The position numbers and the translations under genes are program-made. Positions 9,546 to 12,842 of a DNA stretch of 64,000 nt are shown here, one piece after another. Each line of letters begins with the position of its first letter. Position 1 is the first letter of the stretch. The stretch spans positions 30,814,001 to 30,878,000 of the forward strand of contig NC_134472.1 of NCBI RefSeq assembly GCF_964194025.1, read 5' to 3'. The stretch comes from Convolutriloba macropyga. Its lineage: Eukaryota. The notes under the pieces are model-generated. The model was not told the DNA's origin. It saw nothing but the letters and a program-made list of their open reading frames with translations, and searched no databases.

Positions 9546-12500
9546 ATGCTCCGAAACCTTGTCATATACTGGCTGATTCTCTTCAAACCTTAAGACTTCA
9601 TTCAGGACGTTTGGCTAGAAGCAGGAGTGGTGTTCATCCCAGATACGACGGTGTTTATGGCCTCTTCGTTCAAGAAAATGAGATTGTTTGTAACCTTTCC
9701 GGAACTCCTACTCATTGACGTTAACCAACTACAACTCGCAAGACACAACCTCACGCAGGATGTGACCCAACAATGGGACGGAAATTACATGGGACTCATT
9801 TGATCTTCCACGGTTGTTACGGAGAGTTGCGGAAACTTGACTGCTAGTGTCGTTATTGCACTAGAAAACGAATATCAACGTCTCCAACCGGATTATCAGC
9901 TATTCAAGGACAAAAGGTCATTGTTTAGCAACCATTCCAATGTGGTACATGAGGAAACAAGGCTAAAGAGAAAAGTCAACATGCTATTGGCGGAAGGAGT
10001 GGCACTCAATCTGGGTCCGAACCTGGAGGCAGTAGGCTGTAAACTCTTCTCGATATTGGGTTTATGCAAATCAAAAGAAGCAAGGCACATAGAGAAACTG
10101 AATGAAGAAAACCAGAGAAACAAGTGTAACGTGGACTGGCTAAACACTCAAACGGGAAGTGCAGTCAAAATTCTGAGTGCTGAGGAGCTCACTACGGGCA
10201 CTCGTGTGGAGACCATCAGGAACAATACCAACAGGAACTTAGACTTGCTTGCCACCCAAATCAATGAGATGGGGAAAAAAATGGAAACATATGAGTGGCT
10301 GGGGATTCAAAATAACTCAAGCGTATCGAGATTGGCTGAAATCCAACTTTCAGATGAAGAATCTGCTAAGAATTATATCCGAACTACAAGGGCAAGTTCT
10401 CTTTGCACGTGCCATTGTTACCCACCTGGGATATGTGCTAAGCGAAGCCCTAATTTCTCTAACAAAAAGACTATTACCAGCCATTTTGCTGTCGCCACCA
10501 CAAATTAGGGACATTGTGTCAAAGATGGAACAAACGGGATGGTTCCCGCAATCACCAAGAGCGAGATGTCTGCATATTACTAATTCGAACTAGTGAAAAG
10601 CGCCGAAATAACATCCAAAGGACTCCATATTGAACACAAAATTCCATTTCATCACACCTACACAAAATACCAAGTCTATCGGACTGTGACAATTCCACAA
10701 CCACTGAACAGCGGAAAGACGGCAACAGTTTACGATTTTCAGAAAGAGTACTTTGTCGTCTCCCCACGGCAGGAATTCTTTGGGGAATGGGATAGATCTG
10801 AATTAGTCAAATGTCATGGCACTGACCGTCTTCGGTTCTGCAAAAATGCGTTTGCTCTAACACTATCAGTGAAGAGCTGGTGTCTTAGCAGACTGTTTTT
10901 TGGCCAAAAGACAGACGCGATGAAATTGTGTCCACAGAAATAAATCCCGTTGCCGGCAAACCCATCATCCCAAAATCTGAGGCAGTCTATGGTTCTTCTT
11001 CAGTCGGAGCACAACAATTACCATCTTCTTAACGTAACAATGGACACACGAGCAGGCCAGATACCTGGCTGTAGATCTTGTTTGGTGCAACCATCCTGCA
11101 ATGGACATCTAGAACTCCCTAGTGGTGGTCTTAACCTTTATCCGGAGCCCGAGGTGTGCAGTTTTGACACTGGAATTTCAACGTGCTATTGGTGTCAGGA
11201 GTGGCACTCATCCTGGGCCCAAAGCTGGAGGCAGTAGGCTGTAAATTCTTCTCTATATTCAGTTTATGCAAATTAAAAGAAGCAAGGCACATAGAGAAAC
11301 TGCATGAAGAAAACCAGAGAAACAAGTGGAACGTGGACTGGCTAAACACTCAAACGGGAGGTGCAGTCAAAATTCTGAGTGCTGAGGAGCTCACTACGCG
11401 CACTCATGTCAAGACCTTCAGGAACAATACCAACATAAATTTAGACTTGCTTGACACCCAAATCAATGAGATTGGGAAAGAATGGGAACACATGAGTGGT
11501 TGGGGATGCAAAATAACCCAAGCGTATCGAGATGGGCTTAAAGTCAACTTGCAGATCTGCTATATCCGAACTACAAGTGCAAGTTCTCTTTGCACGTGCC
11601 ATTGTGACCAACCTGGGATATGCGCTAAGCGATGCCCTAATTTCTCTAACCAAAGTACTATTACCAGCCAGCTTGCTACCGCCACCACAAATTAGGGACA
11701 GTTTGTCAAAGATGGAATAAACGGGATGGTTCTCCGCAATCAGTAAAAGCGAGATGTCTGTATAATACGAACTCAAACTAGTAAAAGGTGCCGAAATAGC
11801 ATCCAAAGGACTCCATATTGAACTCAAAATTCCATTTCATCATACCTAAGCAAAGGACCAAGTCTATCGGACTGTGACGATTCCACAACCACTAAACAGC
11901 GGAAAGACGGCGACGGTTTACGATTTTGAGAAACAGTACTTTGTCGTCTCCCCACGGCAGGAATTTTTTGGGGAATTGGATAGATCTGAGTGAATGAAAT
12001 GCCATGGAACTGACCGTCTTCGGTTCTGCAAAATCCGTTTGCTCTAACAATATCAGCAAAGAGCTCGTGTCTTAGCAGCCTGTTTTTGACCAAAAGACTG
12101 ACGCGATGAAATTGTGTCCACAGAAAATACCCGTTGCCGTCAAATCCACCAACCCAAAACCTGAGGCAGTCTATATTTCTTCTTCAGTCGGAACACAACA
12201 ATTATCATCCTCTTAACGTAGCAATGGACACAAGAGCAGGCCAAATACCTTGCTGTATAGTTTTTTTGGTGCAACCACCCTGTAATGGACATCTAGAACT
12301 CCCTATTTTCGGTCTTGTCCTTTATCTATCCGGAGCCCGAGGTGTGCAGTGTTGACACTGGAAAAATAACAAACATTCAGCTACCTGGAATGCTACAGGA
12401 AATGTTTGATCACGTGGAAAAAGAGTTCACATTGGCACCAGCTCCCGCAAAAGATCATTTGAAATCGAAGATTTTCGAAGCCGACAAATTGACACTGAAC

Positions 12501-12842
12501 CATCTATCGGATGAATTTATTGATACCCAAAAACTACCTAATTTGGCAGAACCCTTCATACAGCATCAAAAAATGCAACGACAGGACTACAGCGACAGGC
12601 TTATGCAACACGGGATAGTTCCCTTCAACAGTTTTATATTCCTCGCTATTCTGTTGGCAGTTGGTTTGGGAGTTGCTTGTGGTCACTGGAAGCTGCTAGA
12701 AAGACTTCGGCGGTTTCTCGCAAATAAACTTAAACAAGAGTCACCAGCAGTAGGAAGAGTCACATTCAGCAAAAGCAATGAGAAGCAAGAGTCTGTAGTT
12801 GAACTGCCTGAAGGCAAGCTTGACTTCTACCCAAAGATCTAA
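9546..12842 (+). pseudogene. env: env-like class I fusion glycoprotein (disrupted, internally duplicated)
   Basis: ATG 9546 begins a signal-like MLRNLVIYWLILF. A furin site RLKR (9960-9971) precedes a hydrophobic fusion-peptide-like segment. Then a heptad-like region, the LLPASLLPPPQI motif, a Cys-rich region, the TM segment FIFLAILLAVGLGVAC and a short tail. Confidence 0.85.
9976..12363 (+). repeat. ~1.2-kb direct tandem duplication within env (9976-11177 and 11178-~12363)
   Basis: Both copies start tcaac(a/g)tgctattgg and end ..ttgacactggaa; their translations are colinear. Confidence 0.92.

Follow-up and report, generated by a model that had tools for sequence, protein, structure and literature searches.

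The window analysed here, a 64-kb stretch of the genome of Convolutriloba macropyga, an acoel of the phylum Xenacoelomorpha, contains an 11.1-kb LTR-flanked retroelement (2743-13876) that, judged from its sequence, can with considerable confidence be described as a decayed Ty3/gypsy LTR element of the acoel, carrying an F-like env gene and derived from a multi-copy, env-bearing family. The third gene of the element very likely encodes an F-type (Baculo_F-like) class I fusogen, as indicated by profile comparisons across its protein family. This copy of the element is dead. Env-F Ty3/gypsy elements have previously been described in the majority of animal groups, so the novelty lies chiefly in the host phylum; because the kind is known and the copy is dead, the gain lies in range and evolution rather than in mechanism.

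Results

Anatomy of the Ty3/gypsy element

All parts of the element lie on the forward strand, and a Pfam scan recovered gag, protease (PR), reverse transcriptase (RT), RNase H and integrase (IN) in Ty3/gypsy order between the two LTRs. The 5' LTR (2743-3623), with TG...CA ends, is 89.7% identical to the 3' LTR (12917-13876) over 877 aligned bases (K2P 0.11), the latter differing by 66-bp and 11-bp longer stretches. The element is enclosed by the target-site duplications GACTT (2738-2742) and GACGT (13877-13881), which agree at four of five positions. A primer-binding site starting with TGG (3625-3642), 1 nt past the LTR, and a polypurine tract (PPT; 12905-12914), 2 nt ahead of the 3' LTR, were read from the sequence; the former presumably resembles tRNA-Ile(UAU), and no tRNA genes were found within the 64-kb window. 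The flanks at 2400-2740 and 13950-14200 are very high-depth repeats, and some contigs connect ~2640-2700 with ~13950-14000 in an empty-site-like manner, weakly, as the two sides of the joint measure 22-43 letters.

Within the coding region, decayed gag (3680-4500, approximate ends) was recognised by Retrotrans_gag (E 7e-5, 23.4 bits, just below the cut-off of 24.1) and decayed aspartic protease (4640-4906) by gag-asp_proteas (E 0.0055, under the cut-off), followed by the RT core (6273-6698; RVT_1, E 2e-25) and an RNase H of Ty3/gypsy type (6966-7330; RT_RNaseH, E 1e-24). The decayed integrase, with HHCC, core and C-terminal regions, and the pol tail (7776-9247) matched Integrase_H2C2 (E 3e-15) and, both under cut-off, rve (E 8e-5) and Integrase_p58_C (E 5e-5); the pol stop codon is at 9245. 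The protease-RT interval (~4910-5940) comprises ~340 decayed codons without a Pfam match and may hold an extra pol domain, and the bridge between RNase H and integrase, ~150 codons long, is broken and likewise without a Pfam match. The complement of LTRs, primer-binding site, PPT and target-site duplications, the order PR-RT-RNase H-IN, and an RT and RNase H nearest to Ty3 are those of the Ty3/gypsy elements (Metaviridae).

The affinities of RT and RNase H bear on a different reading, in which the element would be related to lokiretroviruses or Odin, the sister group of retroviruses, and would carry the first F-like env of that kind outside vertebrates. Lokiretrovirus Env has the same layout of signal peptide, RXKR site, fusion peptide, coiled coil and transmembrane (TM) helix, with similarity to PF00523, in the portion of the description available (PMC7947760), and the Odin paper, in its available portion, expects relatives in under-sampled phyla (PMC9040795). 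However, the best PDB match of the RT was Ty3 RT (E 8e-29), followed by an 'enzymatic polyprotein' (8e-24), whereas foamy-virus RT (6e-12) and HIV (1e-5 or weaker) were far behind, and the RNase H that follows RT was nearest to Ty3 Gag-Pol (E 2e-10) and had one altered catalytic-site motif, the first, the other three being intact; this affinity is a ranking of PDB scores and not a tree, in lists that hold no BEL/Pao reference. No second RNase H was detected at E<=0.05 in the three frames of the frameshifted ~150-codon bridge, a search of limited sensitivity, so that the element appears to have a single RNase H. Moreover, Odin lacks env, and neither type is recorded for the two xenacoelomorph genomes screened, as far as the accessible text of the two papers goes (PMC7947760, PMC9040795). 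Since RT and RNase H are nearest to Ty3 and a second RNase H was not seen, the element is not Odin and, on its sequence, is probably not a lokiretrovirus, and a kinship of this sort is very improbable. Identity with Troyka was also rejected, as Troyka is described, in the source at hand, without env and with CG..CG termini.

Layout and decay of the third gene

The env gene (9546-12842) is located downstream of the pol stop and upstream of the PPT, which lies directly ahead of the 3' LTR, and in hydropathy displays a signal-peptide-like leader, a furin site, a hydrophobic peptide and a TM segment in a third ORF after pol. Its N-terminal part (9546-9975) is present once and comprises a short hydrophobic leader, an F2-like region and the RLKR site (9960-9971), with stops at 9591 and 9801. 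It is followed by two copies of an F1-like ectodomain, copy 1 (9976-11175, equivalent to residues ~144-546 of P0003) with two stops and two frame changes, and copy 2 (11178-12363), covering the same region, with four stops and about five frame changes. The C-terminal part (12364-12842), within an open frame spanning 12297-12842, consists of the membrane-proximal region, a TM helix (~12630-12690, hydropathy peak 2.2), a cytoplasmic tail and the stop, and is 83% identical to the natural protein P0007. Residues 1-698 of P0003, a natural protein whose 702 aa are uninterrupted, align over 9546-12824 (tblastn E 3e-147 and 6e-140; 46%), which argues that the region is one gene with an internal duplication and that this gene is not a chance assembly of frames.

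A sequence-only reading of this DNA had reported a complete env on the basis of a series of motifs, all of which were found: RLKR at 9960, ALISLTKxLLPA at 10447 and 11634, PPQIRDIV at 10495, YQVYRTVTIPQP at 10668, EYFVVS at 10746, VLLVSGVALILGP at 11183, FSIFSLC at 11249, the TM motif at 12642 and the stop codon at 12840-12842. The layout is indeed complete, but the gene is not one ORF, as it is interrupted by eight in-frame stops (9591, 9801, 10581, 10941, 11718, 11763, 11847 and 11991) and about seven frame changes (near 10280, 10540, 11560, 12030, 12085, 12125 and 12325). The motifs are real, but the single protein assembled from them was a composite of the two copies: RLKR precedes copy 1 only, and the stretch from VLLVSG to FSIFSLC that had been placed behind the RLKR site is in fact the start of copy 2, with no furin site before it. 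The two copies had also been expected to complement each other's lesions, and their stops do fall at different places, but two stops lie within the initial 143 codons, of which there is no second copy.

The pol-env spacer (9248-9545) has a GC content of 31%, a pyrimidine-rich tract ahead of the ATG, and three CCAAT boxes within 30 bp, at 9400, 9416 and 9424 (reverse), the element averaging about 3 per kb. On sequence grounds, these boxes and the pyrimidine tract are candidates for an internal promoter of env, as in Tor, or for a splice acceptor.

Origin of the env duplication

The two ectodomain copies are 89.7% alike over 1180 aligned bases (TRF period 1188), and their divergence (K2P 0.11) is even along the length and equals that of the LTRs, for which reason the duplication is likely to be about as old as the insertion. 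It begins about one codon past the furin site, copy 2 starts at the fusion-peptide region, and the junction has little microhomology. A template jump during reverse transcription would probably account for this 1.2-kb duplication at about insertion time. Differences between the copies are distributed over the three codon positions as 40/29/49 (p 0.09), and pN/pS is 0.60-0.77 with p ranging from 0.008 to 0.12 depending on the assumed transition bias, i.e., a mild synonymous excess. Divergence of the copies is mostly neutral decay, and the synonymous excess would be explained equally well by a clean duplication and by the joining of two family members that differed slightly, perhaps through recombination between their genomes.

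One contig of run X3 skips 11131-12340 and thereby represents a single-copy form of env; the duplication appears peculiar to the copy in the window. An artefact of assembly was considered as its source, given that none among the contig pieces listed bridges the junction at 11175/11178. A heterozygosity of 3.65% is reported for an assembly of C. macropyga in the accessible part of its description (PMC13650328), and the 10% divergence between the copies exceeds this value, which argues against a mis-join of haplotypes.

Probable assignment to the F-type fusogens

The claim of the sequence-only reading that a Gypsy LTR element here carries an env of the F/Baculo_F type was borne out by Pfam, hhalign, a PDB profile search and the ESM Atlas. 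In an alignment of 65 family members, Baculo_F matched 15 at E<=0.01 (best 2e-28), and among 25 members scanned singly the curated cut-off was passed by 6. The close relatives P0002 and P0007 matched Baculo_F at E 1e-4 and 3e-4, and a fragment of copy 1 in the window (10584-10940) at E 0.0076, all three under the cut-off. When the close clade (A2) was aligned by hhalign with a Baculo_F-rich clade (A4), a probability of 99.9% was obtained over 467 columns, reaching from the leader to the Cys block. The family profile matched PDB entries 9W4D and 9W4C, both named 'fusion protein', at E 2e-13 and 8e-13; from the printed cleavage region we take these to be baculovirus F, and a literature search for the two entries gave no paper. 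In the ESM Atlas, P0003 matched clusters of Fusion_gly and of Baculo_F best (0.95; 208 of 256 features), with a Gypsy env cluster at 0.92; its recognition value of 1544 falls among those for which even high scores carry little evidential weight.

The signal is weaker close to the env of the window. P0001 and P0003 gave no fusion-protein match in Pfam when scanned singly, P0003 reached only E 0.16 in PDB, and the close-clade profile A2 found no fusion protein there at E<=1. As the closest relatives score weakly on their own, the F assignment is partly transitive. The anticipated similarity to viral fusion proteins extends to Baculo_F and 9W4D/9W4C, but paramyxovirus and pneumovirus F0 chains were reached only at E 0.04-0.3 with the family profile. 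A heptad-like stretch had been noticed as well; in a simple test on P0003 residues 171-330, 66 of 300 shuffles attained the same score, so the pattern did not beat chance.

The env family and its relatives

Features of P0003 include a short hydrophobic leader, KNKR at residue 141 followed by a hydrophobic stretch, a TM segment at about 625-655, six N-glycosylation sequons and 14 cysteines. A search among representatives clustered at 50% identity gave 581 relatives of this protein at E<=1e-3. In the alignment of 65 of them, a basic furin-like motif stands at the cleavage place in 35 of the 47 members that cover it, and relatives with no more than 20-35% identity still share the cleavage site, the cysteines and the TM. 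Close protein records numbered 9 in a first search and 28 in a profile search, all from ENA contigs and most of them fragments. The cluster that P0003 represents contains 36 sequences, a hint that a younger sister family exists. In a FastTree analysis, the window copies grouped with P0002, P0004 and P0007 (support 99), then with P0003 (100) and then with P0014 and P0015 (100); the input consisted of 44 relatives, picked mostly by length from about 170, and 2 window pieces, with no named references.

All 30 bins of the element are represented among contigs of runs X1-X3, and 25 of the 30 among those of a fourth run, the records being mostly 85-95% alike; X1-X3 belong to one study and may be the source of the window. 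Because these contigs cover env in the same way as gag-pol, env is regarded as a regular part of a multi-copy family. For the more distant Env relatives, locus scans of viral contigs with A3 and P0003 and of metagenome contigs with P0007 gave no relative with flanking genes, so that a linkage to Gypsy pol did not emerge.

These observations also bear on the suggestion that env is a separately captured viral F gene, from an RNA virus or a baculovirus-like source, residing inside a single element. The nearest ESM Atlas clusters, mostly F proteins of Negarnaviricota, would agree with such a capture. Its position between the pol stop and the PPT, the more than 20 close protein records from separate contigs and the coverage of env by related contigs speak against it, and taken with the assembly artefact considered above, this pair of explanations has only a slight chance of being correct.

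A single open frame at 59834-60484 on the forward strand of the window comprises the C-terminal 216 codons of the exosome subunit EXOSC7/RRP42; it matches a C. macropyga record at 100% identity over 98% of the query, other named animals reaching about 40%. EXOSC7 records P0164 and P0175, on long ENA contigs, have 63% and 76% identity, which suggests that another acoel is present in that ENA collection and that the Env relatives found there need not all be from C. macropyga.

Other repeats in the window

A decayed LINE occupies ~48030-49990 on the reverse strand, with an endonuclease (Exo_endo_phos_2, E 5e-5) and an RT (RVT_1, E 1e-18). At ~15940-23590 a ~2.6-kb unit is repeated three times head-to-tail (96-100% alike), each unit with a 26-bp minisatellite and a 188-codon frame that gave no Pfam match. 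Further tandem units are found at ~31970-37610 (about 2.0 kb, three copies) and ~41100-45770 (2.4-2.8 kb), and a MITE- or foldback-like structure at 26755-27635 consists of inverted arms of 312 nt, 94% complementary and 257 nt apart.

Discussion

Proposed function of the ancestral Env

On the model of Drosophila gypsy, Oikopleura Tor, and paramyxovirus and baculovirus F proteins, an intact member of this family would produce env from a subgenomic RNA, either spliced or initiated at an internal promoter in the spacer. The protein would enter the ER and become glycosylated, and cleavage by furin at RLKR would expose the hydrophobic N-terminus as a fusion peptide. Refolding of the Env trimer in class I fashion may then drive membrane fusion and the entry of particles into other cells, with spread from soma to germline, or to stem cells, as the expected result.

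An alternative is that the env-like protein has kept the F layout while having no role in infection, the element being an intracellular retrotransposon and env a passenger or a gene with an altered role. This copy and most of the close protein records are fragments, and the mechanism of transmission is unknown for most such elements outside Drosophila, as stated in the accessible text of Chary & Hayashi (PMC13524379). An uninterrupted 702-aa sister Env exists, however, in a cluster of 36 sequences, and conservation of cleavage site, cysteines and TM among distant relatives is at odds with loss of the original role; this alternative is considered unlikely, though less so than the other two, and an env-bearing family with an F-type fusogen remains the preferred reading.

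Host phylum and significance

Enveloped Metaviridae had been thought of as mostly insect elements, a view that is out of date: Chary & Hayashi (eLife 2026) describe 1,512 intact env-bearing Ty3/gypsy elements from most animal phyla, with Echinodermata and Porifera as exceptions, and many of these have an F-type env, which occurs in cnidarians, ctenophores, tunicates, annelids and others, according to the portions of the survey available (PMC13524379). The supposition that the host could be an uncharacterised lineage holds in the sense that the host is an acoel, and that names of Xenacoelomorpha or acoels are absent from the genome list, text and supplements of this survey in their available form (PMC13524379). 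No report of acoel env elements was found in the literature searched, which was mostly outside subscription journals and without Repbase or Dfam entries. The accessible part of the Praesagittifera genome paper gives 28% Gypsy with no mention of env there, and the genome note on C. macropyga has no discussion of retrotransposons in its accessible part (PMC13650328).

Xenacoelomorpha occupy a key node of the bilaterian tree. It is conceivable, albeit rather doubtful at present, that acoels hold a deep-branching clade of env-F Ty3/gypsy elements of their own, vertically inherited since the bilaterian split, of which the sister family (the 702-aa Env with 36 near-identical records) would still be active and would pass from cell to cell in the form of enveloped particles, in an animal that divides asexually and is rich in stem cells. 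If true, no enveloped retroelement would have been described from Xenacoelomorpha before, and the Pre-Cambrian-origin hypothesis could be tested directly. The survey, in the portions available, argues that Ty3/gypsy elements with env date back to the Pre-Cambrian (PMC13524379), and an acoel env-F family closes a gap in it; trees of RT and Env, by where they place this family, can discriminate between vertical descent and horizontal acquisition from cnidarians or other marine hosts.

Comparison with known systems

Odin elements, as far as described in the accessible text, have a dual RNase H and no env, whereas the element of the window has an env and a single RNase H (PMC9040795). Lokiretroviruses share with it an F-like Env and an RXKR site (Wang & Han 2021), but are found in vertebrate hosts and possess a tether with a second RNase H and a retrovirus-sister RT in the available account, none of which was seen here (PMC7947760). 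The insect errantiviruses (Drosophila gypsy, ZAM and Idefix) and baculovirus F (PF12259) belong to the same fusogen family by profile, but are very distant in sequence, the window fragment staying under the Pfam cut-off; moreover, insect errantiviruses are described as having a pseudo-RNase H in the bridge (PMC13524379, in part). Compared by description, Tor3b and Tor4b of Oikopleura are similar in being Ty3/gypsy elements with env in a marine invertebrate, and Tor Env has been characterised as glycosylated, membrane-bound and yielding products of the size expected from furin cleavage (Henriet et al. 2015; PMC4402516, in part). Tor differs in its tunicate host and, for some members, in an internal env promoter, at which the CCAAT boxes of the acoel element may hint (PMC4402516, in part). 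The 'ancient errantiviruses' (groups A1-A11) are alike in layout, with LTR-enclosed gag-pol-env, a Ty3/gypsy pol, one RNase H and a short bridge, an env with signal peptide, furin site, fusion peptide and TM, and non-insect metazoan hosts (PMC13524379, in part). That group is marked by an RNase H followed by a 'mini' domain in the bridge; the acoel element shows a single RNase H and a broken bridge of ~150 codons to which Pfam gave no match. Of the features by which Chary & Hayashi operationally recognise env-F errantiviruses, in the text available, the acoel element has the layout and an F-homologous ectodomain, the latter recognised by profiles and partly transitively, and its intact Env would be expected to adopt a trimeric head-and-stalk fold of F type. 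Ancient errantiviruses are described from intact elements, whereas the acoel copy is decayed and its env internally duplicated (PMC13524379, in part).
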